From Gemmatimonadota bacterium (GTDB lineage Bacteria > Gemmatimonadota > Gemmatimonadetes > Gemmatimonadales > GWC2-71-9), in assembly GCA_031400975.1 (NCBI GenBank), contig JANNQX010000145.1, positions 7,754-71,753 on the forward strand: 64,000 bases of DNA. The letters run 5' to 3'. The notes beneath the pieces are model-generated. The model saw only the letters and a list, made by a program, of their open reading frames with translations. It did not search any database and was not told where the DNA came from. The number at the start of each line of letters is the position of its first letter. The first letter of the stretch is position 1. The position numbers and the translations under genes are program-made. Below, in pieces: positions 24,786 to 57,635 of the stretch.

Positions 24786-24855
24786 GCTCGGCACTCGGCG
24801 CTCGGCACTCGGCATTCGATCGCGAGTGCCGAGTGCCGAGTGCCGAGCGCCGAGA
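24786..24855. repeat. inverted heptamer-repeat hairpin (4 x RCTCGGC, loop, 4-5 x GCCGAGY) followed by ATTATCTT
   Basis: Hand pairing of 24787-24818 with 24823-24854 gives ~33 bp with 1 mismatch and 2 G:T pairs around a CGATCG-centred loop. It starts 1 nt after the P2 stop and ends 13 nt before the P3 ATG. Confidence 0.9.
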
Positions 24856-24867
24856 TTATCTTCCACA

Positions 24868-26115
24868 ATGCCACTTGTTGAAGCGATTCGGCTGGCGGTC
24901 GAATCGATCCGGACCTCGAAACTCCGCTCGTTCTTTACCCTCCTCGGGATCATCGTCTCGGTGGGGTTCCTGGTGACCGTGGTGGCGATCATCCAGGGGA
25001 TGAATGCCTACGTCAAAGACAACTTGACGGGGGCCATTATCGGCACCAATTCGTTTCAGGTCCGGCGGACGCCGATCTCCACCCAGTTGTTGTCCGACGA
25101 ACAGATTCGCCAAATCGCCAAGCGGCCATTGATTTCGCAGGAAGACGCTGAGGCGGTTCGCGCGGCCCTTCCCGATGCGGAGGCCGTTTCGCTGCAGTCG
25201 GGGTGGCCGACCCCGTCGGTGGATGTCGTCTACCGAAATCGGGAGGTCTCGAGCGCCCTCGTCTTCGGGGTTACCCCGGACTATCAAGCCGTCCAAGACT
25301 ATCGGTTTGCCGCCGGCGAACCGCTGACCGACACCGATATCCGCGAGCGCCGCTACGTCGCGGTCGTTGGCTTCGACATCGCGGACAAGCTCTTCGACGG
25401 GGCCGAGCAGGCGCTCGGCAAGCCGATCCGAGTTGGCGGTCTTCCGCTGACCATCAAAGGTGTGATCGCGTCCAAAGGCCGGGTACTCGGCCAATCCTTC
25501 GACGCCTTCATCCTGGCTCCCCTCCCCACCTTCGAAACGATGTACGGGCGGCGCCTCACGACCACGGTCTCGGTCAAGGTGCGGACCGCCGAGGAAATCC
25601 CGGCCGCCATGGCGGGCGCCGAGGAGGCCATGCGAGTGGCCCACCGGCTCAGGCCCAACGAACCGAATGACTTCGCCATCGACAAGGCTGATGCGCTGCT
25701 GGCGTTTTGGGCCACCTTGACCAACGTGCTTTTCCTCGTGGTGCCGGCGGTGGTCGCCATTGGGATCGTCGTGGGTGGTATCGTAATCATGAACGTGATG
25801 TTGATGTCGGTCACTGAGCGAACCTATGAAATCGGGCTCCGCAAGTCGCTCGGAGCACGGCGTCAGGACATTCTCCGGCAGTTCATGGTGGAGTCGGTGA
25901 TCCTGGCCACGTTGGGTGGGATCCTCGGGGTCCTCGCCGGTGCCACGCTGGCCTGGCTGGTCGCCGCCGCGAGCCCATTGCCGGCCAAGGTCACCGGCTG
26001 GTCGGTCGGGGTGTCGCTGGCCCTCGGCGCCGGTACCGGGATCCTGTTTGGGGTCTACCCCGCGAACCGGGCGGCCCGGCTTGATCCGATCACCGCGCTG
26101 CGGGCCGAGGGCTAG
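24868..26115 (+). CDS. FtsX/MacB-type ABC permease (P3, paralog of P1)
   Basis: ATG at 24868 ([27 protein letters not shown], compare P1 MPFIEAIRMALATLWSQKLKSFFSLIG). The upstream part of ORF 24826.. is translated repeat sequence. Confidence 0.9.
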
Positions 26116-26118
26116 CCG

Positions 26119-27360
26119 GTGCGACTGCACAGCGTTGGTGAAGGCGTCGCCATGGCGATCGACTCGCTCCGGACCAACAAGCTTCGATCATTCCTGACGA
26201 TTCTCGGCGTGGTCATCGGGGTCTCGACCGTGATGACCATGGCCTCCATCGTCCAGGGCATTCGGACCCAGATCTTCGCGGCGCTCAACGCCGCGGTGCC
26301 CAACACGTTCTACGTTTTTCGATTCAACGCCGGGACCCCAGTCAACCCCGACAACCTGCCCCCGGAAGTCCGGCAACGCCCGATTGTGTCCGACGAGGAT
26401 GCCGTGGCGATCGCCCAGTCTCCGGTCATTCGGCACGCCGCCCTCTGGTGCCGGTTCTTCTCCCGGATTTCCCAGGAAGACGCCACGACCCAGCGGACCA
26501 TCGTCTTCGGAGCCGACGAACGGTTCATGGATCTCCAAGGGGGCACCTTGGTCAGTGGTCGGATGTTTGCCCCGTCCGAAGTGCGGGGCGGCGCCCCCGT
26601 CGCGGTGTTGGCCTCCGATGTCGGCAGGACCTTGTTCGGCAACGCCAGCCCAGTGGGAAAGTTCGTCCGGATGGGGACGCGGGCATTCATGGTCATCGGG
26701 GTCTGGCAGCCTCCCGACAACGCGTTTTCACCCCAGGGCGTTTCAACTGGTGCGGTGATTCCCTTCCGGGCCGCCAAGGGTTCGTTCCGCTACAACGAAA
26801 CCACCGATCAGTTCATCGTGGTCCTCGGGATCCCAACCCTCGCGGTTGGCGAAGTCCAGGACGGCGCGGCCATTGCGCTCCGCCGGCACCGGGGTCTCCG
26901 ACCCGGGCAGCTCGACAATTTCGATATGCTGACCCAGGACCAGATCCTCGAAATCATCAGCAAGTTGACGGGAGCCTTCTTTCTGGTCATGGTGGCGCTT
27001 TCCGGGGTGGCGCTCTTAGTCGGGGGCATCGGCGTCATGGCCATCATGATGGTCTCGGTCACCAGCCGGACCCGGGAAATCGGCACCAGAAAAGCGTTGG
27101 GCGCCACCCGCGGCGAGATTCTCTGGCAGTTCCTGGTCGAGGCCGCCAGTCTCACGGCCCTGGGCGGAGTTCTCGGTATCGCTGCCGGGCTCCTGTTCGG
27201 GGAGGTCATCAAGCTCGCCCTCAAGATCGAAGCCAATGCCCCGCTGTGGAGCGCCGTGGTCGCGGTCGCGGCGTCGGTCGCCATCGGCCTTGGATTCGGT
27301 CTCTATCCCGCCAACCGGGCCGCCCGAATGGACCCGGTTGAAGCCCTTCGCCATGAATAA
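26119..27360 (+). CDS. FtsX/MacB-type ABC permease (P4, paralog of P2)
   Basis: 413 aa with [19 protein letters not shown]. The start is either GTG 26119 or ATG 26152. Confidence 0.9.
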
Positions 27361-27362
27361 CC

Positions 27363-28091
27363 GTGACGAGCCCTATGCCCGTTGATTTGCTTGCCATCGC
27401 GGCCCACCGCGACGACGTCGAACTGACCTGCGCGGGGACCCTGCTCAAGGCCGTCGACCAAGGACACCGGACGGCCATCCTCGATCTGACCGCCGGAGAA
27501 GCAGGCTCGCGCGGGTCGGCCGACCTCCGGGGCCAGGAAGCCGACCGGGCCGCCGCGATTTTGGGAGTCGCCGAGCGACGAAACGCCGGGTTGCCCGATG
27601 CCCATCTCCACAACACGGAGGAGTCCCGCCGGATCGTGGTGGAGGCGATCCGTCACTTCGCCCCCCGCGTCGTGATTTTGCCGTTCCCGGTCGGCCGCCA
27701 TCCCGACCACCGCGTCGCATCCGAGTTGGCCCGCGATGCCTGCTTCTTGGCCGGCCTCGCCAAGTATCCGGCGGGCGGAGAACCGCACCGGCCGTTCAAG
27801 ATTCTCTATGCACTCGCCTATCGGGAGGACCCGATCAAGCCCAGTTTCGTCGTCGATATCAGTGGCCAGTTCGAACGGAAGCTGGCGGCCATTCGTTGCT
27901 ACGCCAGCCAGTTCGACGGTGCCCAGGCCGCCGGTGAGATCTTCCCGACCGGTCAGGACCTCTACGGGCTGGTCGAGACCCAAAACGCCCACTATGGTTC
28001 TTTGATTCGGGCCCGGTTTGGGGAGCCGTTCTTTACCCACGAAACCGTACTCGTCGACGATGTTGTCGGGCTGGGCGTTCGCAGCATCTAA
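27363..28091 (+). CDS. PIG-L/LmbE family N-acetylglucosaminyl deacetylase (BshB1-like)
   Basis: LLAIAAHRDDVELTCAGTLLK ... DLTAGEAGSRGS ... R.EADRAAAILGV is the LmbE/BshB1 pattern. Confidence 0.8.
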   Translation: MTSPMPVDLLAIAAHRDDVELTCAGTLLKAVDQGHRTAILDLTAGEAGSRGSADLRGQEADRAAAILGVAERRNAGLPDAHLHNTEESRRIVVEAIRHFAPRVVILPFPVGRHPDHRVASELARDACFLAGLAKYPAGGEPHRPFKILYALAYREDPIKPSFVVDISGQFERKLAAIRCYASQFDGAQAAGEIFPTGQDLYGLVETQNAHYGSLIRARFGEPFFTHETVLVDDVVGLGVRSI

Positions 28092-28118
28092 GGTCTAACC
28101 CTTTTGCTCACAACGCGT

Positions 28119-28124
28119 TATAAT
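28119..28124 (+). promoter_or_regulatory. -10 box TATAAT positioned for a leaderless cysteine-desulfurase transcript
   Basis: TATAAT at 28119-28124, 6 nt before the ATG at 28131, with no SD. The -35 is weak (TAACCC at 17-nt spacing). Confidence 0.4.
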
Positions 28125-28130
28125 CACACC

Positions 28131-29306
28131 ATGAGGACTGACGTCTACCTCGACCACGCGGCTACGACCCCGGTTCGCCCCGAGGTTCTCGAAGCGATGC
28201 TACCCTACTTCGGGGCCGCTTCGTTCGGCAATCCTTCGAGCAGTCACCGGGTCGGCCGCACCGCTCGGGCCGGCCTCGAACAGGCCCGTCGCGAGGTGGC
28301 CGACGCCGTTGGCGCCGAGCCGGGCCAGGTGGTCTTTACGTCGGGCGGCACCGAGGCCGACAACCTGGCCATCATCGGTACCGCCCTGGCCGCCCGCGAG
28401 CGCGGCGACCCGATGCACATCGTCACCACCGCCACCGAGCATAAGGCCGTTCTCGCGGCCGCCCACCAAGTCGTGCGGCTCGGAGGAACCGAGGAAATCC
28501 TTTCGGTCGGACCCAGCGGATTGGTCGACCTGGCGGTGTTCGAACAGGCCCTCCGCCACCGGCCGGCCGTGGTCTCGGTGATGTGGGTGAACAACGAGAC
28601 CGGCGTTCGCCAGCCGGTCGAAGCCATCGCGGCCCGCTGTGCTGACGCCCAGGTCCCGTTTCATTCCGACGCGGTTCAGGCATTCGGCAAGATTGCACTT
28701 TCACTCCGCGAGACCGATTGCGCGTTCCTCACGTTGTCGGGGCACAAAATCGGAGCGCCGAAGGGCGTCGGGGCGCTCGTCATCAGGGACCGGAAAATCG
28801 TCGAGGCCATCATTCACGGCGGCGGTCAACAATTCGGGATCCGCCCCGGGACCGAGAACGTCGCCGGCGCGGTGGCGTTAGGCCGGGCGGCGAAGCTGGC
28901 CGCCGGAGAGCTAGCGACCGAGGCCCCGCGACTCGCGAACCTCCGGGACGGCCTGGCGGCCTCGCTCCAGGCCGCCGTGCCTGACCTCGTCGTCAACGGG
29001 CTCGACGCACCCCGGGCGCCCCATGTCCTCAACGTGGCCGTCCCCGGTGGGGACAGCGAGGCGATCCTGATGCACCTCGACCTCGCCGGGATCGCGGCGT
29101 CCGGCGGGTCAGCCTGCTCCACCGGGGCGACCGAGCCGTCGCACGTGCTTGTGGCGATGGGTTTGCAGAGGAGTCTCGCCTTGGGGTCGGTTCGGTTCAG
29201 CTTGGGCCATGAGACGGCGCCGCAAGATCTTGCCCGTTTGGTGGCCGTGTTCCCCGGAGTCGTCGAGAAAGTGCGAAGACTTGCAGCGACGCTTGGCCGT
29301 GCCTGA
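28131..29306 (+). CDS. cysteine desulfurase (NifS/IscS family, class V aminotransferase)
   Basis: [23 protein letters not shown]..., PLP lysine [15 protein letters not shown] and active-site loop GSACSTG. Confidence 0.9.
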
Positions 29307-32387: not shown

Positions 32388-32434
32388 CCGGTTCGTTACC
32401 CGCCGATCATCGTTCGCACCGACATTTCGGCTCC

Positions 32435-34528: not shown

Positions 34529-34536
34529 GACTTAAG

Positions 34537-35658: not shown

Positions 35659-35659
35659 G

Positions 35660-36205: not shown

Positions 36206-36266
36206 GCCTTTACGTTGGTTTCCAGCAGTGGGTCGTCGGTCCGGGTGGTTCCTGAGAATAGCGCCC

Positions 36267-37547: not shown

Positions 37548-37573
37548 TCGGGGTCGAGTGGGCCGAGGCCCGG

Positions 37574-40589: not shown

Positions 40590-42278
40590 TCAGTCCACGA
40601 TTTCTAGATCTAGGGCGTCCACTGCCACGTCAAGCACCGCGTCTTTAGCTCTGAACTCACGTAACTTATCAGCTTTCAAGTCCTTATTCGACAGTCGCTT
40701 AGATTTTTCGACCCTGGGTGTTGCGGCTCCGGGATCAAGAACCGAAATCACCACGGAATGCCCGAGGACAGAACTCACCAGCTCCTCCAGCGCACCCAGT
40801 TGCCGCTTCGCGCCCTCAGCCATGTGAATTGCGCTCTCGTCCGGGGCCACGGAAAGCTGGTTGCCGCTCAAGCCGACCGGCCTGAGGTGCTCCATAACGG
40901 TAGCCAACAACGGGCTGGTGTCCTTCGCCTGGGCCACCACATCGAGCCAGGCCCCGGCGATCGATTCGAGAGTGAGGGCCCTCGCCCCAATCGGCCGAGC
41001 CGGGGCCGAATGGGCTGCTTGGACAAGCGGCAGAGCCGGACCACTCGGGGCAGCTGGGGCTTTGTCCGCAGCCGGGAGCGGCGCCTCGAGCCTAGGCGCC
41101 CGAACCGCTCCGACTGCCACGGCCGCCCGAGGAACCGACCGTCCGACTCCGCCGAGCACGGCCTCCAGGTCAACCGTTCGGTCCATTAGGGCCCACCGAA
41201 GCAACAAGGTCTCCACCACCAGCCGGGGGTTGGAACTGCGCCGAATCGACGTCTCCACCTGGCTCAGCAACCCTAACATCCGGAGCACGTCGCCGGCGGC
41301 CAGCTGCTCGGCGGCGAGGTTCACGGCCTCCCGCTGAACCCCGGTCAGCCCCTCAGGTACCGCACCGGTGGCGACCATCAGGACCGAGCGCAGCAACTCC
41401 GCCATTCCGTTGGCGAACTCCACCAGGTCAGTCCCGCCGGCTAGCAACCGATCGACGACGGGAAAGATCGCCGCGGCGTCCTTCCGAGCCACCGCCCCGA
41501 GGACCTCGGCATAGACATCGTCGCCAGTCAGACCGAGGGCCTGGCGAACCCGATCGGCCGTGAGCGTCCCATCTGACAAGCTGAGAGCCTGGTCTAACAC
41601 CGACAATGCGTCCCGCATTCCCCCATCGGCGTACCGGGCAATAACCGCGATCGCGTCGTCATCCGCCAAAAGGCCCTCCGCCGCCAGCACCTGTTTCAGT
41701 CGGTCGCGAATCGCGGCCGCACCAATCCGTTTGAAATCGAATCGCTGGAGCCGGGACAGCACCGGGGCGGCGTTGTTGGCGATTTTTTGGGGTTCCGTCG
41801 TCGCGAAAACGAAGACCACCCGCGGGGGCGGCTCCTCCAGGATCTTGAGGAGCGCGTTCCAAGCCTCCCGGGTGAGCATATGGGCTTCGTCAACGATGTA
41901 GACCTTATAGCGATCTTCCTGGGACGCCGCATACATCGCCCGCTCGCGAAGGTCGCGGGCGTCGTCGACCCCGCGGTTGCTGGCCGCGTCAAGCTCGATG
42001 ACATCGAGATTGGCCGACCCGCTCCAAACCCGCTGGCAGGTGTCACACTCACCGCACGGCTCACCGGTCCTGGCCTTCTGATCCTGGCGCTCGCAATTGA
42101 GGGCCATCGCCAGGATCCGGGCGGCCGTGGTCTTGCCGACCCCCCGGGGTCCGGTTAGGAGGTAGCCGTGCCCCACTCGCCCCTTCGAGATCGCCCCCCG
42201 CAAAGCGGCCGCCACGTGATCCTGCACGAGAAGGTCGGCAAAACGGCGGGGTCGGTACTTCCGGGCGAGGGCAATCAC
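40590..42278 (-). CDS. dnaX: DNA polymerase III subunit gamma/tau
   Basis: GTG at 42278 gives (M)IALARKYRPRRFADLLVQDHV, followed by Walker A GPRGVGKTT, a zinc module CGECDTCQ and DEAHMLT. The ORF track's extra 38 N-terminal codons are translated repeat sequence. Confidence 0.9.
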   Translation of the reverse strand: MIALARKYRPRRFADLLVQDHVAAALRGAISKGRVGHGYLLTGPRGVGKTTAARILAMALNCERQDQKARTGEPCGECDTCQRVWSGSANLDVIELDAASNRGVDDARDLRERAMYAASQEDRYKVYIVDEAHMLTREAWNALLKILEEPPPRVVFVFATTEPQKIANNAAPVLSRLQRFDFKRIGAAAIRDRLKQVLAAEGLLADDDAIAVIARYADGGMRDALSVLDQALSLSDGTLTADRVRQALGLTGDDVYAEVLGAVARKDAAAIFPVVDRLLAGGTDLVEFANGMAELLRSVLMVATGAVPEGLTGVQREAVNLAAEQLAAGDVLRMLGLLSQVETSIRRSSNPRLVVETLLLRWALMDRTVDLEAVLGGVGRSVPRAAVAVGAVRAPRLEAPLPAADKAPAAPSGPALPLVQAAHSAPARPIGARALTLESIAGAWLDVVAQAKDTSPLLATVMEHLRPVGLSGNQLSVAPDESAIHMAEGAKRQLGALEELVSSVLGHSVVISVLDPGAATPRVEKSKRLSNKDLKADKLREFRAKDAVLDVAVDALDLEIVD

Positions 42279-42291
42279 GGCAACAAGATAA

Positions 42292-42326
42292 TCTCGGCGC
42301 TCGGCGCTCGGCACTCGGCACTCGGG
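42292..42326. repeat. heptamer array, 5 x RCTCGGC (left arm of an inverted pair)
   Basis: tctcggc gctcggc gctcggc actcggc actcggg, read directly. On the minus strand it is followed by ATTATCTT and then the dnaX GTG. Confidence 0.9.
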
Positions 42327-42385
42327 TTGATGTTCGGTTGACGGTGGGGTGGTAGGGTGGATCGTCTCGGCGCAGGAGCCGGCTT

Positions 42386-42742
42386 GTGGCAATTCGGAGT
42401 TATCGGGACTTGATGGTTTGGCAGCTGAGTATGGAGCTCGCTCGGGCGGTGCATTCGACGACGGGGCGGTGGGCGCTGACGGAGGTGCTGGGAAGGGAAC
42501 TGCGCCGAACCTCGATCTCGATCCCCTCGAATATCGCCGAGGGCTACGGCCGGGGCAGCACCCGGGAATATCTCCAATACCTCAGAATCGCGATGGGCTC
42601 AGTGGCCGAACTCGACACCCAGCTCCGCCTGGCCGCCATGATGAACCTGCTCTCGGCCACCGAATCGACCACCCTCCTCGAATCGATCGACCACATCGGC
42701 CGCAAACTCAACCGCCTCCGCCAAGCCCTCCACCCCCGCTAA
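42386..42742 (+). CDS. four-helix-bundle protein (23S rRNA intervening-sequence protein / Avd family)
   Basis: 118 aa. (M)AIRSYRDLMVWQLSMELARAV ... SIPSNIAEGYGRGSTREYLQYLRIAMGSVAELDTQL is the family signature. AGGAG lies 7 nt upstream of the GTG. Confidence 0.85.
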   Translation: MAIRSYRDLMVWQLSMELARAVHSTTGRWALTEVLGRELRRTSISIPSNIAEGYGRGSTREYLQYLRIAMGSVAELDTQLRLAAMMNLLSATESTTLLESIDHIGRKLNRLRQALHPR

Positions 42743-42743
42743 C

Positions 42744-42800
42744 GCCGAGCACCGAGCCGCCGAGTGCCGAGCGCCGAGTGCCGAGTGCCGAGTGCCGAGA
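42744..42800. repeat. heptamer array, ~8 x GCCGAGY (right arm of an inverted pair)
   Basis: gccgagc accgagc (c) gccgagt gccgagc gccgagt gccgagt gccgagt gccgaga. It begins 1 nt after the four-helix-bundle gene stop. Confidence 0.9.
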
Positions 42801-42904
42801 AACGCCCCAGGCACCCCGAAGCAATACTGGACATCGCTTAGCGCTGCTACCGGCAAGGTCCTGACGCGGTTCGCGCGCCAGCATCCTTCGGACCTGGGGC
42901 CCCC
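42801..42904 (-). ncRNA. ffs: signal recognition particle RNA (small/4.5S type), hand-predicted
   Basis: The reverse strand reads GGGGGCCCCAGGUCCGAAGGAUGCUGG...GUCAGGACCUUGCCGGUAGCAGCGCUAAG...CCAGUAUUGCUUCGGGGUGCCUGGGGCG. Long terminal helix (GCCCCAGG/CCUGGGGC, CCGAAG/CUUCGG, GAUGCUGG/CCAGUAUU). Domain IV core GUCAGG-ACC-loop-GGU-AGCAGC-..UAAG matches the GUCAGGUCCGGAAGGAAGCAGC.UUAAG core of known SRP RNAs (from memory). The position upstream of dnaX is the classic synteny. The ends are approximate. Confidence 0.65.
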
Positions 42905-42908
42905 CAAA

Positions 42909-43883
42909 CTACCCCACCCCGCCCCCCGGAGCCACCCCCCCACCCCCGCCGAGTGCCGAGCGCCGAGCCCCGAGCGCCGAGTACTGCATCTCCCGAAGCT
43001 CCCAGGTTTCCGCCACCACGCCGCCCAGCAGGAAGACCAAGGACGAGTAATACATCCAGAGCACGAAGAGAATCGCCGACCCCGCATCGACGTCGACCGA
43101 AACGCTCTGGTAGATCCGGTTGCGGATGTAGAGACCGAACAACCGCTTGGCCGCCTCAAACAGGACGGCTGAAAACAGCGACGCCACCAAGGCGGCTCGC
43201 CACGGAATTCGGCGCATGGCCGCGAAATGATAGACCGAAAAGAACAGACTCACCAGAAACCCAAACGCCACGACCTGGCCCACCAGTTGCCCCGCGGTGG
43301 ACAGCAGAAACCCGAATTGGGGAGCCAGCGCAAGGCCACGAGCCTCGAGAAGGGCAAGGCCGGTCGTCAGTCCCGTGTTGGCCAGAAACAAGAGGAGAGT
43401 CAGCCCGACCATCCGGAGGTCGCGAAGCTTGCCGAGGAGGTATCCAACCACGAAGTGCCGGCGGACCGGCCGGACGTGGACGTCGTAGATCTCGTTGAGG
43501 GAGGTGCGGGCCGAGGCAAACAGCCGGGTACTGAACCAGAGGAAGGCCGGCACCACTACCACCGACAGCTCTCGGGCCGCGAGCACCAACCGGCCGAGGA
43601 ACTCTTCGACCGCCGCAAAGGGGTCCTGGCCGGCGGTCGTATCATGCGGAGGGAAGAACCGCTCCACGAAGTCGGCCGCACTCACCGGCGTCGCGCCCGC
43701 CCAGTCGACCAGCAGGGAGACCCCTGCGAGCACCAGAAGGAACAACGGGATCGCGGCGAGCAACGCATCGAACGTGAGCGCACTCGCTAGAAACGGGATC
43801 CGATTTTCATCGGCGGCTTGGAGAGTCCGCCGGACAAACCCGCCAAACGAGCGGTACCACCCGCCGAGGCGAGCCTCGATCAG
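42909..43883 (-). CDS. YihY/BrkB (virulence factor BrkB / 'RNase BN-like') family inner-membrane protein
   Basis: Multi-TM protein. The conserved N-terminal region ...RIPFLASALTFDALLAAIPLFLLVL lies upstream of the ORF track's TTG (43763), and the only in-frame start-like codon after the upstream stop is CTG 43883. The C-terminal ~25 aa are encoded by heptamer array D plus a G-rich run. Confidence 0.7.
   Translation of the reverse strand: MIEARLGGWYRSFGGFVRRTLQAADENRIPFLASALTFDALLAAIPLFLLVLAGVSLLVDWAGATPVSAADFVERFFPPHDTTAGQDPFAAVEEFLGRLVLAARELSVVVVPAFLWFSTRLFASARTSLNEIYDVHVRPVRRHFVVGYLLGKLRDLRMVGLTLLLFLANTGLTTGLALLEARGLALAPQFGFLLSTAGQLVGQVVAFGFLVSLFFSVYHFAAMRRIPWRAALVASLFSAVLFEAAKRLFGLYIRNRIYQSVSVDVDAGSAILFVLWMYYSSLVFLLGGVVAETWELREMQYSALGARRSALGGGGGVAPGGGVG
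42948..42982. repeat. heptamer array, 5 x GCCGAGY
   Basis: gccgagt gccgagc gccgagc cccgagc gccgagt, lying inside the 3' end of the yihY-like ORF (antisense orientation). Confidence 0.9.
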
Positions 43884-45831: not shown

Positions 45832-46039
45832 GGTTTGTGGAGCGAGGATGAAAAGAAGGCCGGTTCTGTGGATTCGGCCGACGGGGCCGATCCCATTACA
45901 CTCGAACGGTTTGAACGACGCGAGCCCGGGCCGCTATGGGGGCCCAATGTGGAGAAAGCCGCCAATCCACATAACTGTATAGGGAATTTCTCCCTCTAAA
46001 TCTGGCCGAAAAATCCCAACTCAGTTTGTGGACAGCCGG

Positions 46040-46068
46040 TTGGCATCGATTGCATATGTCATTATGAT
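46040..46068 (+). promoter_or_regulatory. candidate sigma70-type promoter for pyk (TTGGCA-N17-TATGAT)
   Basis: Read directly in the AT-richest patch of the 547-bp intergenic region, ~155 nt upstream of the pyk GTG. Confidence 0.4.
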
Positions 46069-46224
46069 ATAAGCTCTTACAATCAACAGTTGTGTCGATT
46101 GCGAGTATCCACATGGCAGCCAATCCGCCGACCCATTGGGACGGTAAAATTTGAGCCGATAATTGGGATGCCCGCGCCCACCAGCTCCGGGGGCCAGGCC
46201 TGACCATTCGACTAGAGGTTTCGA

Positions 46225-47661: not shown

Positions 47662-47672
47662 CCCAGGCATCG

Positions 47673-48452: not shown

Positions 48453-49840
48453 AACTGCACTATGGTCGGATGATGAGCGACAAGCTCGATGGCCAACACG
48501 GCCTCGCCCGCAACCGAGTGGCGGAGCTGGTGCAGCGGTTCGGCGCGGTGTTCGCCGAAGTCGAGACCCGCAAGAGCCAAGGTGAGTACGGCTTCTACGG
48601 CTTGGGCCAACAGGCCGACATCGTGTCCGGAATCCGGCGGTTCGCCGACGGAGTCGGGCAGGCCTATGATCATGTCTTGGTGCTCGGCATTGGGGGCTCG
48701 GCACTCGGCACTCGGGCCTTGGTCAATGCCCTTCGGCCCCCGGCGTGGAATGAGTTGGATGATGAGGCGCGGGAGTATTTTCCCCGGATTACGGTGCTTG
48801 AGAACGTCGACCCCACCTCGATGGCGGCGGCGCTCCGGCGGATCGATCCCCGGCGCGTGTTTGTGAACGTCATTAGTAAGTCGGGGGGAACCCCGGAGAC
48901 CTTGGCGCAGTACTTGGTCGTCCGGGGGTGGCTCGATCAGGCCCTCGGACCCGATGCGGCGGTTCGGCATTTGGCGTTCACGACCGACCCGTCGAAGGGC
49001 CCGCTACGCGAGCTGGCCGCCAGGGAGGGGATTGCCGCCTTGGAAGTCCCGCCTGACGTTGGGGGCCGGTTCAGTGTGCTGACGGCGGTCGGGCTCCTCC
49101 CCGCCGCCCTCGTTGGGATCGACATCGAGGGCTTGATCCGGGGCGCGAACCGGGCCCTCGAACACGCGGCCCGCCCGGACCTGTTGAACAACCCCGCCGC
49201 CCTCTATGCCGGCCTGCTCTGGGCCGCCGACGCTTGGCTCGGGGCCAAGATTCACGTTCTGATGCCCTACAGTGACCGACTCCGCGACTTCGCGCCATGG
49301 TTCGTCCAGCTCTGGGCCGAGAGTCTCGGGAAACGGGTCGACCGCCGCGGGCAGCCGATCTGGGGCGGGCCGACACCGTTAGGCGCCGTCGGCGCCTCCG
49401 ACCAGCACAGCCAAGTCCAACTCTTCATGGAGGGCCCGTTCGACAAAGTCGTCTCCTTCGTCCGAGTCGAGGCCCCGGGCGAGGATCTTCGGATTCCCCA
49501 TCGACCCGACTTGCCCGAGGAGATGGCCTACCTCCAGGGTCACTCCCTCGGGGAGCTGCTGCTCGCCGAGCAGGAAGCCACCTCGGCCGCGCTCGCCCGG
49601 ATGGGCCGGATGAACGCCACCCTCGTGGTGCCCCGGCTCGACGCCGAGGTACTCGGGGAACTGATCATGTTCATGCAAGTGGCTACTGGATTCGCCGGCG
49701 TCTGGTACGGGGTCAACCCGTTCGACCAGCCCGGCGTCGAACTCGGCAAACGTCTGACCTTCGCCGCCCTGGGCCGCCCAGGTTTCGCGAAGGAAGGCTC
49801 CGCCACAGCCGATTCCGGTCTGCCCACCGACGTTGCCTGA
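48449..49840 (+). CDS. pgi: glucose-6-phosphate isomerase
   Basis: LVLGIGGSALGTRAL (SIS/PGI motif), GGRFSVLTAVGL and DQHSQVQLFMEGP. ATGA overlap with the MBL gene. Confidence 0.9.
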   Translation: MKLHYGRMMSDKLDGQHGLARNRVAELVQRFGAVFAEVETRKSQGEYGFYGLGQQADIVSGIRRFADGVGQAYDHVLVLGIGGSALGTRALVNALRPPAWNELDDEAREYFPRITVLENVDPTSMAAALRRIDPRRVFVNVISKSGGTPETLAQYLVVRGWLDQALGPDAAVRHLAFTTDPSKGPLRELAAREGIAALEVPPDVGGRFSVLTAVGLLPAALVGIDIEGLIRGANRALEHAARPDLLNNPAALYAGLLWAADAWLGAKIHVLMPYSDRLRDFAPWFVQLWAESLGKRVDRRGQPIWGGPTPLGAVGASDQHSQVQLFMEGPFDKVVSFVRVEAPGEDLRIPHRPDLPEEMAYLQGHSLGELLLAEQEATSAALARMGRMNATLVVPRLDAEVLGELIMFMQVATGFAGVWYGVNPFDQPGVELGKRLTFAALGRPGFAKEGSATADSGLPTDVA

Positions 49841-49962
49841 GGTTGACGGATCTCGGTGGCGCCGGCGGTGGTCTCCCACTTGCACCTCCCTCCCCCAGTG
49901 CCTCGGTCACCTGACCAGGCCGGTCGCCAACCAATTCTTATAAGTCGTTGGGAGAGAATAAG

Positions 49963-50862
49963 ATGGACGTCATTAGAACGCTCAGAGCGATCCTGGCACC
50001 TTCTGCCGGGCCGGTAAACCACGACCGTCCCCCCGTTGGCCGACCGGCAACTCCGTCAGGTCCCCAGAGCTTCGCGACAGCCCTCAAAGAGGCGGCCAAC
50101 CTCGAGGATCCCGACATCGGCACCTTCGGCGTCATTGAACGGCTCCAGCGGCCCGCTGAGCGTCAGGAGAGGCCATCGGTGGACCCCGGCCGACCCACCA
50201 TCGGGCCGGACCTGCCGGATGCGCCAGGGACGGACCTCCCACTCGAGCCCCCGCCGATCGAGATCCGGGATACCATCGAGTCGATGACGGTCCTAATTCT
50301 CAAGCCCGAAGTGCTCTCCAAGCCGGAACCGATCCAACCGCCGGTGGGCCAAACCAAGCCCCAAACGCCGGTCTCCGAGCCCAAAGCCCCGCTGATAATG
50401 AGCCTGCCACCGGTCGGCGTGCTCTGGGCTCCAGAGTCGCTCCGGGCGAGCGGCGCCTCCGGTCCCGGCATTGCGGGGACCGACGCCGCCACCCAGACCG
50501 ACCTCGCGAACAAGTTCGAGTACTACACCAACCCAGAGAAGTACGGCCTGACCCTCAATCAAGAGGCCAGGCTTTTCCTCGACGCCGTCGACAAAGGCTA
50601 CATCTCAAAATCCCCAGAGGGCCTAGGCACCCTCCTCTCAACCCTCGGCCGCGGCGCCATCGGCCCCACCGCCCGCCCCCCAGAAATGACCGAGTACTTC
50701 CGCCAGTTCTTCGCCCCCCGCCCCGAGCTCGAGCCCGAGTGCCGAGTGTCGAGCGCCGAGCGCCGAGCGCCGAGCGCCGAGCGCCGAGCGCCGAGCGCCG
50801 AGCGCCGAGAAAAGCAAAGAGCCCCGCCTTTCGGCGGGGCTCCTTGTTTCTCGACTAACTAG
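49963..50862 (+). CDS. hypothetical proline-rich protein; 3' end reads through a heptamer array and a terminator stem
   Basis: GGGAGAG lies 7 nt upstream of the ATG. GC3-rich codons throughout. No family recognised. The last ~40 codons (…PECRVSSAERRAPSAERRAPSAERREKQRAPPFGGAPCFSTN) are repeat/terminator-encoded. Confidence 0.5.
   Translation: MDVIRTLRAILAPSAGPVNHDRPPVGRPATPSGPQSFATALKEAANLEDPDIGTFGVIERLQRPAERQERPSVDPGRPTIGPDLPDAPGTDLPLEPPPIEIRDTIESMTVLILKPEVLSKPEPIQPPVGQTKPQTPVSEPKAPLIMSLPPVGVLWAPESLRASGASGPGIAGTDAATQTDLANKFEYYTNPEKYGLTLNQEARLFLDAVDKGYISKSPEGLGTLLSTLGRGAIGPTARPPEMTEYFRQFFAPRPELEPECRVSSAERRAPSAERRAPSAERREKQRAPPFGGAPCFSTN
50734..50810. repeat. heptamer array, 11 units (8 consecutive perfect CGCCGAG)
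   Basis: gcccgag tgccgag tgtcgag then 8 x cgccgag, read directly. One orientation only, with no nearby inverted arm. Confidence 0.95.
50821..50842. terminator. bidirectional intrinsic terminator
   Basis: AGCCCCGCC-TTTC-GGCGGGGCT stem-loop, flanked by AAAAGCAAAG (left) and CCTTGTTTCT (right), between two convergent genes. Confidence 0.7.
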
Positions 50863-50867
50863 CTGGT

Positions 50868-53800: not shown

Positions 53801-54089
53801 GCAAGACGCTGACCAGACCGGATGCACTGACCGTGGCGCGGGTGATATCGCTGCTGCTCCACGTGGTGGCGGCGTTACAACCAGCATCCGCCGTCACAGC
53901 GGCAGACATCTGCAGGGTCTGGCCGGGGCTGACGGTCACACCGTCGGGAGCCACGGAGACCTGCCGGACAGCCGGCGGCGGCGGCGGCGGCGGGGCTGGC
54001 GGATCGACAATCGTGAGATCGTCTCCGCAACCAGCCAAGGCCGCGGCGAGGCCGCTGGTCAACAGCAAGGAACGGTAAAGCTTGTTCAT
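50868..54089 (-). CDS. large surface lipoprotein with N-terminal bacterial Ig-like (Big_2-type) repeats
   Basis: 1073 aa. Lipobox LAAALAGC, a poly-Pro linker, then three repeats of the '...W.SSD...A.VS..GL......G...I.A' pattern. T/S/A/G/N-rich and low in charge. GGGGGAG RBS. Confidence 0.8.
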   Translation of the reverse strand: MNKLYRSLLLTSGLAAALAGCGDDLTIVDPPAPPPPPPPAVRQVSVAPDGVTVSPGQTLQMSAAVTADAGCNAATTWSSSDITRATVSASGLVSVLPAAPSGSIAIRATATCATGGATGNGVATLNVVGTTVTAVTITPPSAQINAGTSLSAPGTLQASATVAGTNSPAQTVVWSSLDGTLASVSATGLITANAQSLGGPVVIKACSTANPAVCGTMSLTVVIPAPASVQIQAVTFNNGTNNVPVNLTNVKAQIEIALNVEAGSRNITRVDALVGGQVVATQTFASASAAAAPEAAATLIILSTNTAQVRQNGSVFVPVIFNGNSAITANLYVSGSSTPLASNAIPVVMNNPDAIIRRPSGTRPASLAPTATTPVVTSLNDGETYYKGTQTVEGYDYIAFGRAVPQSVALDSDVCGGSDNLISGGAATTGIVVGGLYDCGGVEGGNDVVEVSSTAYAVGAVGPDGTPLTRPESVSCGSLSVAGAAIASSSGISTVGTAFLVGGENRWNMICPPVGSAPGESFVDNKGPAVTIGTVAFNDSFDQPWVNAGYAFGQDMTASDGGDLIGSGVAAGFPKARSYAVDCPAPNLPTQTGADFAETSTSNNIDGQRICTYAEDLLGNANWTGASNYFGVDFGAPTVRFLGATPPAATPLPVLPASTLVAVANDPTSIYSIAAPPPAQAFGLEAIDGRSGFHQGVALSTCGTGAGCYPASYTFTRLTATGTANAIIASYGLPTPLNDTYVRSIELPILGATAPVTGLGGVGYYNWSGNVTDRAGNTSSTIARNFAADHLLPPNITGLGFNTGFYTPGAAAPFGFSANDDLEIIDATAAVSMHIPTLAGTALRYPFGSLSPLGTRWDATITNVVNGALASIGYFLFRVDEMCTAAATPYPACPAPLVFPYINSSKIPFTTSQVITDGLYNVGAPGAVNGGKLPTVVSANVNDVASQTAAAPIAAPMLSSQFNPSTGISEQWSAADLISWSGSTTEVAASVVGTHVASTSIVNPYFEGASLWRLNGTEWTYCAAFPAPVRTDNGQHRFWKYTVLIPTTGACLVGTTWRIMGTKAGAGLFGGVI

Positions 54090-54609
54090 TAACTCCCCCT
54101 ATGATTCGTTAGCCTGCGAAGGACAGAAACGCTTTGCCTGCAACAATCTGCAACCAACCTATTGCCACTGCTTCGACACTACTCTAGCGGCAAGACCCAC
54201 CGGCCGCTGTGAGCTAGCGCACAATTCCGCCGCCCTCGCGCCGCCGATCTGCTTTCAACTCCTGAGCCCCCGACCAGCGGAATGGCTTGACCAGAATTCA
54301 ACGCGCCAAGTTAGCAACCAGCGGCGCAACGGTCAAGACCTAACCTCTATTGGCTCCTTAGGTTGGCCCATCCCGGACCGACATCCAAGGCCAGTGACCC
54401 AAAAAGCTGCACCCCGCCGGACTGTCCCGTACCAGCTTCGATCAGCCAGCGAGCAACCCCCGTGCCGGAACCCCTTCAAACCTCGCAAGTTGCTGATTCT
54501 TGCAGTCTTGCGGCGCCTGTCCGGGAATCGACCGGCCCCAGAAATCGACCGACCCCTGGCCTCGATGCGAGTACCCCCTGGGGTTCGCAAGCCCGATCAT
54601 AACCCGAAG

Positions 54610-55191
54610 CTACCGACCCACGGCAGTGAACCCCCGTCGAATCGCCTCGGCCAACAACGGCCACCACTCGCCGTCCGCGAGAGTACTGACTCGTTCCCGG
54701 GCCACCAGGGTTCCATCGTCCGCAACAACGAAAAACGTCCAATCTCGGTCTCGGTCGCCCACCCCGAACTGGCGGTGAATCCGGCCCCCGCTGTCCGCCA
54801 GAACCCGGAGCGAACCGCCCAGCGAGGAGCTAAGGACCCGAGCCTCAGCCGAACCCGCCCGCACCACCCCAACCAGGGCTATTCGAGGGCTCCCCAGGGA
54901 GTCCGCTCGCCTGGCCAGCGCGGCCCAGTCGATCCGAACCGCCGGATCAGGGCGTCCCCCGAAGGCCACGACCACGACTCGGCCGAGTTCTCCGGCCAGA
55001 CGGAACTCGATTGCTCGGCACTCGGGGCTCGGCGCTCGGCACTCGGAGGAGGAGTAGGACGGGAGGACGATTGGGGGGACGGGGCGGCCGGGCCGGAGGC
55101 TTCCCAACAACTGGGCGCGGACGGGTTCTTGGGCCCGGCCCGGGGTCGGACTGACGGCCAGGATCGCCGCCAACAGGGGGCTCCACCTCAC
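54610..55191 (-). CDS. thioredoxin-fold-like secreted protein lacking a CxxC motif
   Basis: GTG at 55191 overlaps the tlpA stop (GTGA). Signal-like VRWSPLLAAILAVSPTPGRAQ. Array G encodes SSSECRAPSPECRA between the signal and the domain. The TlpA-like layout has AFGGRPD where WC..C is expected. Weak call. Confidence 0.5.
   Translation of the reverse strand: MRWSPLLAAILAVSPTPGRAQEPVRAQLLGSLRPGRPVPPIVLPSYSSSECRAPSPECRAIEFRLAGELGRVVVVAFGGRPDPAVRIDWAALARRADSLGSPRIALVGVVRAGSAEARVLSSSLGGSLRVLADSGGRIHRQFGVGDRDRDWTFFVVADDGTLVARERVSTLADGEWWPLLAEAIRRGFTAVGR
55013..55047. repeat. heptamer array, 5 x RCTCGGN
   Basis: gctcggc actcggg gctcggc gctcggc actcgga, internal to CDS 54610..55191. Confidence 0.9.
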
Positions 55192-55691
55192 CGCGGGAGG
55201 GCCTTGGCTACCGCTGCCATGAGGTTTTGGTCGGCGCCTGAGCCGGTGTATGCGATGACCCCCTTGGCGTCGATCACGACAATATAGGAGGTGGTTGGGA
55301 CGTCGAAGGCTCGGGTTCCGGCCCCGAGGTTGTCGTAGAGGGTCAAAAATGGGGGGGAATGGGCGACCAGATACCGGCGAACCCGGTCGGGGGAATCGTT
55401 GACCGTAATGTTGACGCCGATCAGGGTCACCCGGTCGCCGTAGGTTTGGTTGACAAGGTTGAGCTGCGGCAGGAGCGACTTGCAGACCGCACACCAGGTT
55501 GCCCAGAACTCGATCAGCACCACCTTCTTGCCGATGTAGCTCCCAAGATCGACCGGCTTGCCGTCAAGGTCGTTGATGGCGACCATCGGGGCCTTGGTAC
55601 CGACCGGAATGCCGGCGTCGAACTGGGCTGCCGCCGGTCCGGCGCCGAGTCCCAGGAAACCCACCACGATCGCTGCAGCTCTCAGATCCAT
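55188..55691 (-). CDS. TlpA/ResA family thiol:disulfide oxidoreductase
   Basis: ATG at 55691 (overlaps the ccdA stop), a signal peptide and FWATWCAVCKSLLP (CxxC). Confidence 0.85.
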   Translation of the reverse strand: MDLRAAAIVVGFLGLGAGPAAAQFDAGIPVGTKAPMVAINDLDGKPVDLGSYIGKKVVLIEFWATWCAVCKSLLPQLNLVNQTYGDRVTLIGVNITVNDSPDRVRRYLVAHSPPFLTLYDNLGAGTRAFDVPTTSYIVVIDAKGVIAYTGSGADQNLMAAVAKALPR

Positions 55692-56371
55692 ACCTGCCCC
55701 ATCTTGACGAAGTAGTACTCTGCCATCGCGAGCATCAGGACGCCGGCCGCCCGTTTGATCCACACAGTCCAGCGGCCTGGCTTGGGCAGGGCCGCCAAGG
55801 TCCCGGAGAATATCCCGATCACGATCAGTAGGGCCGTCATGCCGAGACTGAAAACAAATAGATAGAGGAACCCGAGGCCCGCACTCTGGGTCGCCCCGAC
55901 AAACGTGAGGACGGCGGCGAATGCCGGCGCACCACACGGCGCGGCCACCAACCCCGAGGTCGCGCCCATCACGAAGACCGCCCCGAGCGATTGGCTCCCA
56001 AACTTGCCCGCCCAGGCCAGGAGCCGTTCGGGGACGAGAACCGGAATCGCGTCAAGCATGGCCAGACCGGACAGGAGCAGCAGATTGCCCATGGCGAAGA
56101 AGGCCCAGGGATTGGCGCTGATCGACCCAAACAGGGTCCCGGTCAGCCCGGCAATCAGCCCGAGGGTCGCGTAGACGGTGGCCAAACCAAGCGCGTAGAC
56201 CAAGCTCATGACCACGGTCCGCCCACGGGAACGCCCCACGGCCCCCGCGCCGCCGAGCACGCCGGCGGTGATCGGAATCATCGGGTAGACGCACGGCGTT
56301 AGGCTCGTGACCAGGCCGGCTCCGAAGAGCACCGGAATGGCCGCCAGCGGACTACTGAGCAGCTCGCTCAT
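55682..56371 (-). CDS. ccdA: cytochrome c biogenesis thiol-reductant transporter CcdA (DsbD family)
   Basis: ATG at 56371 ([34 protein letters not shown]...). Second conserved Cys context [10 protein letters not shown]. The 17 codons upstream in the ORF track are repeat-encoded. Confidence 0.85.
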
Positions 56372-57635
56372 GCTCGGCACTCGGCATTCGGGGCTCGGCA
56401 CTCGGCATTCGGGGCTCGGCACTCGGCGGGAAGCGGGAGGCGACGTAGTCTTCGAGGATGGCGAGGAATTCGGGGACGATGGCGTCGCCTTTGAGGGTTT
56501 TGAGGAGGCGGCCGTCGACGAACACGGGGGCCTTGGGGTCCTCGAAGGTGCCGGGGAGGGAAATGCCGATGTGGGCGTGTTTGGATTCGCCGGGGCCGTT
56601 CACGACGCAGCCCATCACGGCGACGTTCATCGTTTCGACCCCGGGGCGGGTGGTCTTCCACTCCGGCATTTGATCGCGAAGATAGTTTTGAATGTCCTGC
56701 GCCATGGACTGGAAGAACGTGCTGGTGGTCCGGCCACACCCGGGGCAGCTGGTGACCTGCGGGATGAAGCTCCGGAGACCGATCGACTGAAGGATCTGCT
56801 GCGCCACCCGGACCTCTTCCGCCCGGTCGCCGCCGGGAGCGGGGGTCAGGGAAACCCGAATCGTGTCACCGATGCCCTCTTGGAGGAGGACGCCGAGGCC
56901 CACGCTGCTGGCGACGATGCCCTTGATCCCCAGGCCGGCTTCCGTCAGCCCCAGGTGGAGGGGATAGTCGCATCGGGCGGCGAGCATCCGATAGACGTCA
57001 ATCAGGTCTTGGACGCCCGACACTTTGGCCGAGAGGATGATCCGATCGTGGGCCAGGCCGATCTCCTCAGCTTGGGCCGCCGACCGAACCGCGCTCTCGA
57101 CCATGGCATCCATCGTCACATCGCGGGCTCCGCGGGGAGCAGGGCTCGCGGCATTCTGGTCCATCAGCTGGGTTAGCAGCTGCTGATCGAGCGAGCCCCA
57201 ATTGACCCCGATCCGGACCGGTTTGGCGTGGGCCAGCGCGACCTCGATAATGGCCCGAAAGTGCTCATCATGCCGCTTACCGCCGACGTTGCCGGGATTG
57301 ATCCGGTATTTGGCGAGGGCCCGGGCACACGCCGGGTGCCGGGTCAAGAGCAGATGGCCGTTGTAGTGAAAATCGCCGACGATCGGGACGGTGAGGCCGA
57401 GCCGGTCAAGCCCGTCGACAATCGTGGGGACGGCCGCCGCGGCCTCGTCGGTATTGACGGTGACCCGGACCAGCTCGCTGCCGGCCCGGAACAGCTCGGC
57501 CGCTTGCCGGACCGTGGCCGGCACATCGGCGGTGTCGGTGTTGGTCATCGACTGCACCACAACCGGACGACTGGACCCGACCGCGACCCCGCCGACCGTG
57601 ACGGTCGGCGTGACGCGGCGTGGAGCTATTGCCAT
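56352..57635 (-). CDS. ispG: 4-hydroxy-3-methylbut-2-en-1-yl diphosphate synthase (flavodoxin)
   Basis: [28 protein letters not shown] and [13 protein letters not shown]. The last ~25 codons ([25 protein letters not shown]) are encoded by array H. Confidence 0.95.
56372..56427. repeat. heptamer array with 21-nt super-period (gctcggc actcggc attcggg) x 2.7
   Basis: Read directly. It spans the ispG 3' end and abuts the ccdA ATG. Confidence 0.95.

Follow-up and report, generated by a model that had tools for sequence, protein, structure and literature searches.

What are the tandem copies of the heptanucleotide GCCGAGY that punctuate one stretch of bacterial DNA, and what could account for their presence there? 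The stretch, hereafter the window, comprises 64,000 nucleotides of a Gemmatimonadota bacterium (GenBank assembly GCA_031400975.1, contig JANNQX010000145.1, positions 7,754 to 71,753 of the forward strand), and coordinates given without a locus label refer to it; labels such as L001, L033 or L195 denote loci from other assemblies that were compared with the window. The reading we lean towards, without great confidence, is that the arrays are the lineage-specific repeat component of hairpin elements of the intervening-sequence (IVS) type, in which paired arrays would be cut by RNase III and solo arrays would be half-elements. An earlier note on this DNA had described the arrays but overlooked that two of them form the arms of a single element around a gene, namely that of an S23p/23S rRNA intervening-sequence protein (IVP), and that a stable RNA gene lies between two arrays.

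Arrays were detected with Tandem Repeats Finder (TRF) and by a search for two consecutive GCCGAGY units with one mismatch allowed. Both methods find period-7 arrays at every locus given in the earlier note, that is, seven loci, to which one short run is added, within 32 kb of the window. TRF reports 4.6-11.6 copies with 75-96% matches, and the two-unit search returned 39 matches against 0.37 expected from dinucleotide-preserving shuffles, none of 100 shuffles reaching 39. There is indeed no array in positions 1-24785, as had been remarked, but this gap is uninformative, with a chance of about 0.05 in a Poisson estimate for 8 arrays per 64 kb. The context given by Pfam and Rfam agrees with the description of a dispersed family that keeps to gene boundaries, tails and linkers. 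None of the six frames of the unit contains a stop codon, and hence open reading frames (ORFs) read through the arrays, which appear as 7-residue periodic peptides, as had also been noted. Outside the arrays, GCCGAG ranks 21st among 2040 hexamers (top 1%).

The central piece of evidence lies between dnaX and the gene of the signal recognition particle (SRP) RNA, where an ORF at 42386-42742 (plus strand) encodes a four-helix bundle protein of the S23p/IVP type (PF05635, E = 2.6e-27; TIGR02436; PDB 2GSC, XCC0516, E = 2e-17) with a pI of 10.4. On the dnaX side stands a 5-unit array at 42292-42326 (minus strand; TRF, pattern search, inverted-repeat search and fold), 13 nt upstream of the dnaX GTG (42278) and, on the other strand, 60 nt upstream of the GTG of the IVP gene. 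On the far side, an 8-unit array at 42744-42800 (plus strand; TRF, inverted-repeat search and fold) starts 1 nt past the IVP stop codon and ends 1 nt short of the 3' end of the SRP RNA. The two arrays provide arms of 33-34 nt that are 91-96% complementary, and both the minimum free energy and the centroid structure are predicted to contain a 33-bp closing stem around the IVP gene.

The SRP RNA gene itself (ffs; 42802-42899, minus strand; Rfam RF00169, 47.1 bits) is outside the repeat family but bracketed by arrays. It is the sole Rfam match in the window, which contains no rRNA; the arrays have no match at the gathering score, and none was found in 18 array-bearing loci from other phyla. The element thus sits between SRP RNA and dnaX and not in helix 25 or helix 45 of a 23S rRNA gene, the location that defines an IVS. 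According to Pfam and Rfam, the neighbors of the IVP gene are dnaX, the SRP RNA and brkB, and no reverse transcriptase, template repeat or variable repeat adjoins it. The three arrays around the IVP gene and the SRP RNA are all present in L077, L115 and L214 with different numbers of units: on the 42292 side, 5 in the window, 5 in L077, about 4 in L115 and 4 in L214; on the 42744 side, 8 in the window, 9 in L077 and 7.7 in L115. A comparison of unit numbers, which the earlier note had proposed together with the Rfam search, hence reveals counts that differ between relatives at the same loci.

We assembled a sample of 21 IVP genes, composed of that of the window, other IVP homologs in the compared loci and, to remove ascertainment bias, homologs fetched without selection for repeats. 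The unselected homologs include 12 from plasmids (Nostoc, Anabaena, Calothrix, Pseudanabaena, Stanieria, Geminocystis, Picosynechococcus, Gemmatirosa, Azospirillum and Riemerella) and 5 from chromosomal contigs (Luteimonas, a Bacteroidales metagenome-assembled genome (MAG) and three orthologous contigs of no assigned phylum). A uniform criterion was applied, namely a complementary-segment score of at least 14 between the flanks and an arm periodicity of at least 0.6, with 1500 random 360-nt pseudo-genes from the same array-rich loci as controls. Inverted arrays of 7-8-nt units flank 17 of the 21 PF05635 genes against 1 of the 1500 pseudo-genes, and three of the four IVP genes that fail the criterion still show visible arrays. 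The phyla with array-flanked IVP genes are Cyanobacteriota, Gemmatimonadota, Pseudomonadota, Bacteroidota and Chloroflexota; the other IVP homologs of the compared loci, from a Dehalococcoidia, a Halomonas and a Chromatiaceae locus, are all flanked by inverted 7- or 8-mer arrays of unrelated sequence.

The layout does not vary: at 10-90 nt upstream of the IVP start codon stands one array, and its complement adjoins the stop codon or is read through at that point. Several of these genes are wedged into operons (L196, L197, L200, L204, L209 and L211-L213), between carA and carB, an adaptor and an ABC ATPase, cas6 and cas4 (twice), cmr2 and cmr3, or nrdB and nrdA. In Azospirillum, the IVP ORF and both of its arrays, with arms (GAGGACG)x3.9 and (GTCTTCT)x4.1, lie inside the large-subunit rRNA gene; this element is a genuine 23S rRNA intervening sequence of the same construction as the window element. 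The arm unit recurs at other nearby sites of the same replicon in the window, in L072, in L084 and in Anabaena pANA02.

Nostoc, Anabaena and Calothrix dominate the plasmid matches of the IVP protein, and most of the sampled IVP proteins are basic. The only solved homolog is XCC0516 of Xanthomonas campestris (PDB 2GSC, 5 chains), and the protein has been described as a homopentamer (PMC4990558). The Xanthomonas repeat catalogue holds an entry for a GGGAATC array that overlaps the start of XCC0516. Many of the contigs with IVP homologs measure no more than 0.5-3 kb, as would be expected if short-read assemblies break at the arrays on either side. A gene of the related Avd type was seen in L216 (Anabaena sp. 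90 pANA02), where the annotated avd gene of a diversity-generating retroelement (DGR; 4149-4502, minus strand) is followed, immediately past its stop codon, by a 9-mer array of 4.4 copies at 4100-4139, which occupies the spacer that leads to the reverse transcriptase gene; upstream of avd, this locus showed no complementary array.

Literature coverage is incomplete; within it we found no publication that generalizes the link between S23p, or IVS, and heptamer arrays, and a literature search with the GCCGAGY sequence string returned primer text only. Two points appear to be new, namely an S23p gene enclosed by arrays outside rRNA and the cross-phylum association of S23p genes with inverted short-tandem-repeat arrays.

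The window contains a second hairpin built from the same unit, this time without an ORF. It is located between two cistrons for MacB/FtsX-type permeases (Pfam) and consists of a left arm, (CTCGGCR)x4.6 at 24786-24818 (plus strand; TRF, sequence, Pfam and RNA fold), which follows the upstream MacB-type permease gene (23472-24785) immediately behind its stop codon, and a right arm, (GCCGAGY)x4.6 at 24823-24855 (plus strand; TRF and RNA fold). The predicted stem spans 24787-24854 with a 4-nt loop, at -69.9 kcal/mol on the plus strand and -64.4 kcal/mol on the minus strand (z = -11). Unit counts in this spacer (left plus right arm) are 4+4 in the window, 3+4 in L033, and a vestige of about 1 plus 8 in L001. 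By reading, the C/T variants of the unit are not mirrored between the arms in the window and in L033. The arms hence change at least partly independently, and their origin as mirror copies by fold-back synthesis was rejected on the same ground. A terminator scan found nothing at 24650-24950 or at 42150-43050, the tail after the stem being ATTATCTTCC. The operon of a MacAB-type pump, between adaptor and ABC ATPase, is also one of the hosts of an IVP gene; the same operon type thus holds the ORF-less hairpin of the window.

Between this hairpin and the ATG of the downstream permease gene (24868) stands a TTATCTT box (24856-24862, plus strand), and a second one (42285-42291, minus strand) separates the array from the start codon of dnaX. 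TTATCTTS, i.e. TTATCTT followed by G or C, has only these two exact matches in the window, each directly after an array, and the box is conserved in L033, L001, L077 and L214; matches with one mismatch are at chance level in the window. Across the compared loci, GAATGCG-clade loci such as L157, L168 and L169 among them, TTATCTT, or TAGATT in another clade, lies 5-10 nt upstream of start codons that lack a Shine-Dalgarno (SD) sequence, right after the repeat arm. Speculatively, TTATCTT could serve leaderless or near-leaderless mRNAs as a -10-like element; no accompanying -35 consensus was found, and region scans of 24650-24950 and 42150-43050 detected no sigma-70 consensus promoter at the arrays of the window.

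The other arrays are solitary. The 5-unit array at 42948-42982 (plus strand; TRF, Pfam context) lies 48 nt upstream of the SRP RNA 5' end, in the 3' tail of brkB (42909-43763, minus strand), and has counterparts at this position in L077 and L214; its complementarity to the 42292 arm, at a distance of 623 nt, is 94%. An 11-unit array at 50734-50810 (plus strand; TRF, fold) makes up the last ~25 codons of ORF 49948-50862, which has no Pfam match. The 5-unit array at 55013-55047 (minus strand; TRF, Pfam) encodes part of the N-terminal linker of a weakly matching AhpC/TSA-like ORF that runs on the minus strand from 54610 to ~55200; in L195, the same site holds a degenerate relic of 35-40 nt, of the same length and with residual 7-nt periodicity. 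Finally, the 8-unit array at 56372-56427 (minus strand; TRF, Pfam), which has a perfect 21-nt superperiod, forms the 3' end of ispG, encodes the last 24 residues of IspG and abuts the ATG of ccdA at 56371. IspG homologs of 85% identity or more carry 1-3 heptads of this array at their end (17 close homologs), and those with 83% identity or less have none; at the ispG|ccdA junction, L195, the closest contig found, has 2 units where the window has 8. T-type arrays alone fold no better than shuffles (z = -2.2 to +1.0).

Two further features accompany this set. The short run of ~3 units at 48696-48716 (minus strand; TRF, pattern search, Pfam PGI) falls on the GIGGSALG motif of the PGI gene and is probably a coincidence of coding, or possibly a seed, and not an element. 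A canonical hairpin terminator at 50809-50852 directly follows the 11-unit array; with A/T tracts on both sides it is apparently bidirectional, between the convergent ORF 49948-50862 and the gene of a 1073-residue Big_2 protein.

When one genome per species was scanned for four units in succession, at least 114 loci were found in many high-GC lineages, and several Gemmatimonadota MAGs contribute many loci each among the matches listed. Three of the scan loci are syntenic with the window at 80-87% nucleotide identity, which places the window in Gemmatimonadota; the named IspG homologs likewise point to Gemmatimonadales. The arrays are not an assembly artefact, a possibility that had been left standing earlier, because orthologous positions are occupied in four independent assemblies (L033, L001, L077 and L195). 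Arrays are inherited at fixed sites, vary in unit number and can decay.

Sites were followed at greater distance by a metagenome scan with DnaX, which provided 80 loci at 50-79% identity and, with the window, 615 kb of sequence. Arrays of at least four copies in these 615 kb are mostly of period 7 (n = 73), followed by period 8 (n = 28) and period 6 (n = 20); inverted pairs account for 75 of 121 period-7 arrays and 24 of 62 period-8 arrays in the DnaX loci plus the window. The order brkB - ffs (SRP RNA) - dnaX is kept in relatives, the SRP RNA being found in 19/19 related loci with Rfam and in 71/82 with blastn. The spacer from SRP RNA to dnaX takes three forms: a basal one of 13-48 nt without hairpin, a second of 77-161 nt with a hairpin of 7- or 8-mer array arms (-35 to -79 kcal/mol), and a third of ~500 nt in the clade of the window. 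The unit of the spacer hairpin varies by clade, e.g. GGTGAGC, GAATGCG, GGCTATG, CGAATGT or AGCGGGGC, and within clades some members keep the full hairpin, others two units of one arm only. The spacer site is thus conserved while the repeat sequence turns over; that related lineages retain hairpins at shared sites but build them from different 7- or 8-nt repeat units likewise appears to be new.

Throughout L115-L194 and the window, the SRP RNA lies directly upstream of dnaX on the same strand, and the basal spacer has the sequence TTTTCTTTTCCCTCCGCCC-ATG; because this spacer measures only 13-48 nt, dnaX is suggested to be expressed by read-through of the SRP RNA terminator. The coding region of dnaX in relatives (L117, L119, L122, L126, L142, L152, L154, L159, L166, L168, L169, L182, L183, L185, L190, L191 and L193) also carries an inverted pair of 7- or 8-mer arrays, of -39 to -141 kcal/mol. 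In every case the pair begins at codon ~372-385, immediately behind the domain III helix, and stops just short of the conserved 'PEKGPLTLDRLRALWP' segment; its first arm is purine-rich in the sense strand, with a single exception (L183 3023-3235). We take the position to be that of the gamma/tau frameshift signal of other bacteria, and a role of the intragenic hairpins in such a frameshift was considered; no slippery A-run was seen upstream of them in the relatives. The dnaX linker of the window (40850-41220) contains no arrays.

Loci from more distant lineages add observations of their own. In other phyla, GCCGAGY arrays of 18-43 units start right after perfect sigma-70 promoters (TTGACA-N17-TATAAT/CATAAT), as in L051 2838-3138 (minus), L023 677-907 (minus) and also L085, L071, L093, L089 and L086. 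L051 (Vicinamibacterales) and L023 (Palauibacter) have in common a segment of ~90 nt after the array, which ends in a terminator hairpin and has no Rfam match; array and segment may together be a small RNA with a repeat leader. In Halomonas (L013, L041, L075, L080, L084 and L092), a conserved AGGATGATG... sequence and a terminator come after the GCCGAGY arrays, suggesting that they represent one repeated context in that genus. Different heptamers stand side by side in many of the loci L001-L114 (e.g. L059, L070, L072, L073, L094 and L105), where the partners of GCCGAGY include GCCCAGG, GGTCATC, GCGAGTA, AATTCGA, AGCTGAT and GATCAGT/GATGGCA, an arrangement that resembles the mixed arrays of Microcystis. 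Plasmid 1 of the cultured strain Gemmatirosa kalamazoonensis (L208) repeats a common hairpin with 9-nt units, three copies per arm, at 3403-3475, 11600-11675, 12186-12261, 19974-20042 and 21526-21617; the unit CGCAGAGGA / TCCTCTGCG occurs at three loci within 9 kb, and the IVP gene of L208 has 8-mer arms. Since Gemmatirosa L208 uses 9-nt units and 8-mer arms, the unit length is 7-9 nt and not strictly 7.

By anatomy alone, the GCCGAGY arrays belong to the known dispersed heptanucleotide repeats: they occur as tandem copies at many loci, near start or stop codons or in spacers, vary in unit number and form inverted pairs. The earlier note's impression of an undescribed repeat family therefore does not hold, such repeats being documented in PMC4692102 and PMC4679880 and in the cyanobacterial STRR sequences, which are short, repetitive and repeated in tandem. 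The best catalogued case is GGGAATC of Xanthomonas, with 186 arrays, mostly of ~4 units (range 2-26; Rehm et al. 2015, PMC4692102), of which 70-75 convergent inverted pairs occur per genome and whose lengths differ between related species (PMC4692102). In Nostoc, the heptameric unit is GGGGAYT; GGGAATC and GGGGAYT arrays are for the most part found no more than 50 bp from a start or stop codon, between ORFs of the same orientation, and 7-11% overlap ORFs (PMC4692102). Dispersed tandem heptamers, inverted pairs, proximity to starts and stops and length variation are common to these repeats and to GCCGAGY; the units differ, and GCCGAGY cannot form G-quadruplexes. Rehm et al. made no mention of a link with S23p or IVS (PMC4692102). 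TAACTGA of Beggiatoaceae, cyanobacteria and Bacteroidetes occurs as short sets of tandem heptamers, mostly between genes and immediately upstream of start codons, and is patchily distributed across the phylogeny (MacGregor 2015, PMC4679880). Like the loci compared here, it shows arrays of different heptamers mixed side by side; unlike GCCGAGY, it is AT-rich, carries stop codons in forward orientation and forms nearly exclusively direct repeats (a single indirect one). Both papers, PMC4692102 and PMC4679880, credit Mrazek 2007 with the excess of heptamer repeats and its explanation by polymerase slippage.

Dispersed repeats of other kinds differ more. The REP/BIME/REPIN families are, like GCCGAGY, lineage-specific, dispersed and extragenic and often form inverted doublets that fold into hairpins between cistrons; REP and REPIN are, however, imperfect palindromes of 20-40 nt tied to RAYT transposases, not tandem 7-mers with a four-helix bundle protein. 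The earlier note was right to set the arrays apart from REP-type elements, the GCCGAGY unit being a non-palindromic 7-mer in tandem. No RAYT (IS200/IS605-like) transposase was noticed among the window ORFs that were examined, a search aimed at RAYT not having been made. Cyanobacterial STRR are lineage-specific tandem heptamers dispersed in non-coding regions; judging by the title of a 1997 paper by Vioque, they reportedly also occur inside RNase P RNA genes, where they are said to lengthen a helix of that RNA. They differ from GCCGAGY in phylum and unit, and we found no published connection between STRR and S23p.

The closest parallel is the S23p-type IVS. The first description of such rRNA insertions is that of Burgin et al. 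1990 (cited in PMC4990558). In Coxiella, an S23p ORF lies in the helix-45 IVS, the 28-bp terminal stem is cut by RNase III in vitro, and two or three tandem heptamers GACAGAT, in strain-dependent number, precede the ORF (PMC4990558). The IVS of Coxiella and Leptospira resemble the window element in having a PF05635 ORF within terminal inverted repeats with a stem of ~28-33 bp, tandem heptamers that adjoin the ORF and vary in number between strains or relatives, and a place in a transcription unit, either beside a stable RNA or inside one. The window element differs from them in that it is not in rRNA, its stems consist wholly of 5 and 8 tandem heptamers, and its unit also forms an ORF-less hairpin and solo arrays elsewhere. 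A relationship also exists with Avd of DGRs (PF22296/PF05635 relatives), which belongs to the same four-helix-bundle superfamily, bAvd being among the Pfam matches of many homologs; in contrast to a DGR, the IVP gene of the window has no adjoining reverse transcriptase and no template or variable repeats.

What can be observed, namely the anatomy, the orthologous positions, the turnover of unit number and unit sequence and the association with PF05635, fits a model in which each array, a run of 7-nt units, would grow and shrink by slipped-strand mispairing. We infer slippage because unit numbers differ between related genomes, and the array in the IspG ORF, with a superperiod of 21 nt that preserves the frame, points the same way. 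Two inverted arrays make a perfect stem of ~30 bp, and the inventory of the window comprises one ORF-less hairpin, one ORF-bearing IVP element and four solo arrays, all made of GCCGAGY. RNase III is known to cleave long perfect RNA duplexes. By analogy with the IVS, a paired array, once transcribed, would form such a duplex and be cut by RNase III, the insert being removed or isolated and the flanking RNAs remaining usable. Tolerance of the elements in operons, beside SRP RNA, in rRNA and in protein linkers could be explained thereby, because the cut would leave the flanking RNAs functional. Among the roles that the earlier note had put forward, an RNA structure or RNase III site thus appears as the best fit for the paired arrays, given the fold of the tight pair and the 33-bp stem. 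Solo arrays, most likely half-elements, relics or seeds, would persist only where they are harmless, that is, in ORF tails, linkers and spacers, the unit being free of stop codons. More tentatively, and at a level of confidence that makes this a possibility rather than an expectation, S23p/IVP proteins may be trans-acting partners that bind, maintain or mobilize short tandem-repeat hairpins, the arm-gene-arm unit being the autonomous element.

Several results weigh against this reading. No complementary partner, degenerate ones included, was found within 900 nt of the pgi run or of any of the four solo arrays, which together make up five of the eight array positions, and a hairpin cut by RNase III is for that reason not directly applicable to solo arrays. 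In the spacer between SRP RNA and dnaX the hairpin is dispensable, since many relatives lack it. Folding energies, compared between sense and antisense strands in a manner sensitive to G-U pairs, favor neither strand clearly for the hairpins upstream of dnaX (8 versus 6), and intragenic hairpins favor the antisense strand in 16 of 19 cases, so that no consistent signal of selection at the RNA level emerges. IVP genes are also sparse: one in the 64 kb of the window and one locus among the 80 DnaX loci, most hairpins having no IVP gene nearby; nor does an action of the protein on the repeats follow from the adjacency of IVP genes and arrays.

In a serious rival explanation, which we nevertheless consider rather unlikely, the arrays are a mutational by-product, i.e. 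neutral or slightly deleterious 7-nt repeats made by slippage and devoid of function, with template switching at quasi-palindromes producing the inverted pairs and IVP genes being selfish passengers for which hairpin loops are safe places of insertion. Unit number indeed varies freely between relatives, hairpins come and go within clades and leave two-unit remnants or seeds, the 55013 site has decayed to a relic in L195, GCCGAG is frequent enough for seeds to be plentiful, and folding energy shows no strand bias; the heptamer excess and the slippage hypothesis are moreover already published (Mrazek 2007, via PMC4692102 and PMC4679880). Independent slippage fails, however, to explain why one unit is common to many loci of a genome and another unit to those of its relatives, and it leaves the fixed arm-gene-arm layout around PF05635 genes across phyla without explanation; stems of -70 to -140 kcal/mol that persist at one conserved position of the dnaX coding region are also hard to see as neutral. 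Were the arrays instead binding sites that hold one protomer per unit, for a pentameric IVP or a cold-shock-type single-strand binder tuning adjacent transcription or translation, for example at SD-less starts, one could understand that three arrays lie 0-13 nt from such starts (permease, dnaX and ccdA, as had been correctly pointed out before), that a TTATCTT box conserved in relatives follows two of them, that the typical array has 4-5 units where the closest solved IVP homolog is a homopentamer, that most sampled IVP proteins are basic, and that arrays in other phyla begin right after perfect sigma-70 promoters. We judge this idea improbable, as the arrays are inconsistent in orientation and position (5', 3', tails, sense, antisense), the genes beside them have no common function and no sigma-70 consensus promoter accompanies those of the window.

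Two more specific explanations fare worse. That paired arrays are ordinary intrinsic terminators or attenuators, solo arrays being decayed terminators, would account for a strong hairpin between cistrons and for the hairpins found directly after the dnaX stop codon in several relatives. An intrinsic terminator combines a GC-rich stem with a T tract, and the paired arrays have no T tract after the stem, which speaks against the terminator role proposed in the earlier note; the terminator scan was empty at both sites, a separate canonical terminator stands right after the 50734 array, and hairpins also occur inside coding sequence and 23S rRNA, where termination would be lethal, all of which makes this explanation very unlikely. 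Heptanucleotide phase variation is known in Haemophilus, and the 7-bp repeats of the hmw promoters of Haemophilus influenzae offer the model for contingency loci, in which unit changes switch adjacent genes or the reading frame. Differences in unit number between relatives, and a unit length that is not a multiple of 3 and so shifts the frame with each one-unit change, would suit such switching, which had also been suggested earlier. Support for it is lacking: the arrays occupy 3' tails and ends, linkers and spacers and not 5' coding regions, frame shifts in the tails of IspG, BrkB and ORF 49948 change few terminal residues, and the neighbors are housekeeping genes (dnaX, ispG, ccdA, SRP RNA) and not genes of the surface or of host interaction, which leaves contingency the least credible of the explanations weighed here. 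Telomerase-like addition at breaks and arrays of Chi sites were also considered and are not favored.

Some consequences are practical. The arrays extend called ORFs with spurious low-complexity tails, as in IspG and BrkB, they probably break short-read assemblies, and they can place stems of -70 to -140 kcal/mol in operons and, in relatives, even in dnaX.

Beyond this, our reading of the arrays as the repeat component of IVS-type hairpin elements touches three long-unexplained matters, namely dispersed heptanucleotide repeats, the origin and spread of rRNA intervening sequences, and the function of the very large S23p or 'four helix bundle protein' family outside DGRs, and the evidence joins them in one physical unit across at least five phyla. 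These questions become experimentally approachable in Nostoc PCC 7120, in Xanthomonas campestris (XCC0516) and in Gemmatirosa. Should S23p/IVP proteins be the trans-acting partners of the repeats, the arm-gene-arm unit would be the autonomous form of a widespread element that inserts into transcribed DNA (rRNA, operon spacers, protein linkers) and that RNase III takes out again from the RNA; the STRR, GGGAATC, TAACTGA and GCCGAGY families, together with ORF-less hairpins and the short ORF-less IVS of rRNA, would be its non-autonomous derivatives, and the repeat unit would co-evolve with the S23p/IVP protein in each lineage.

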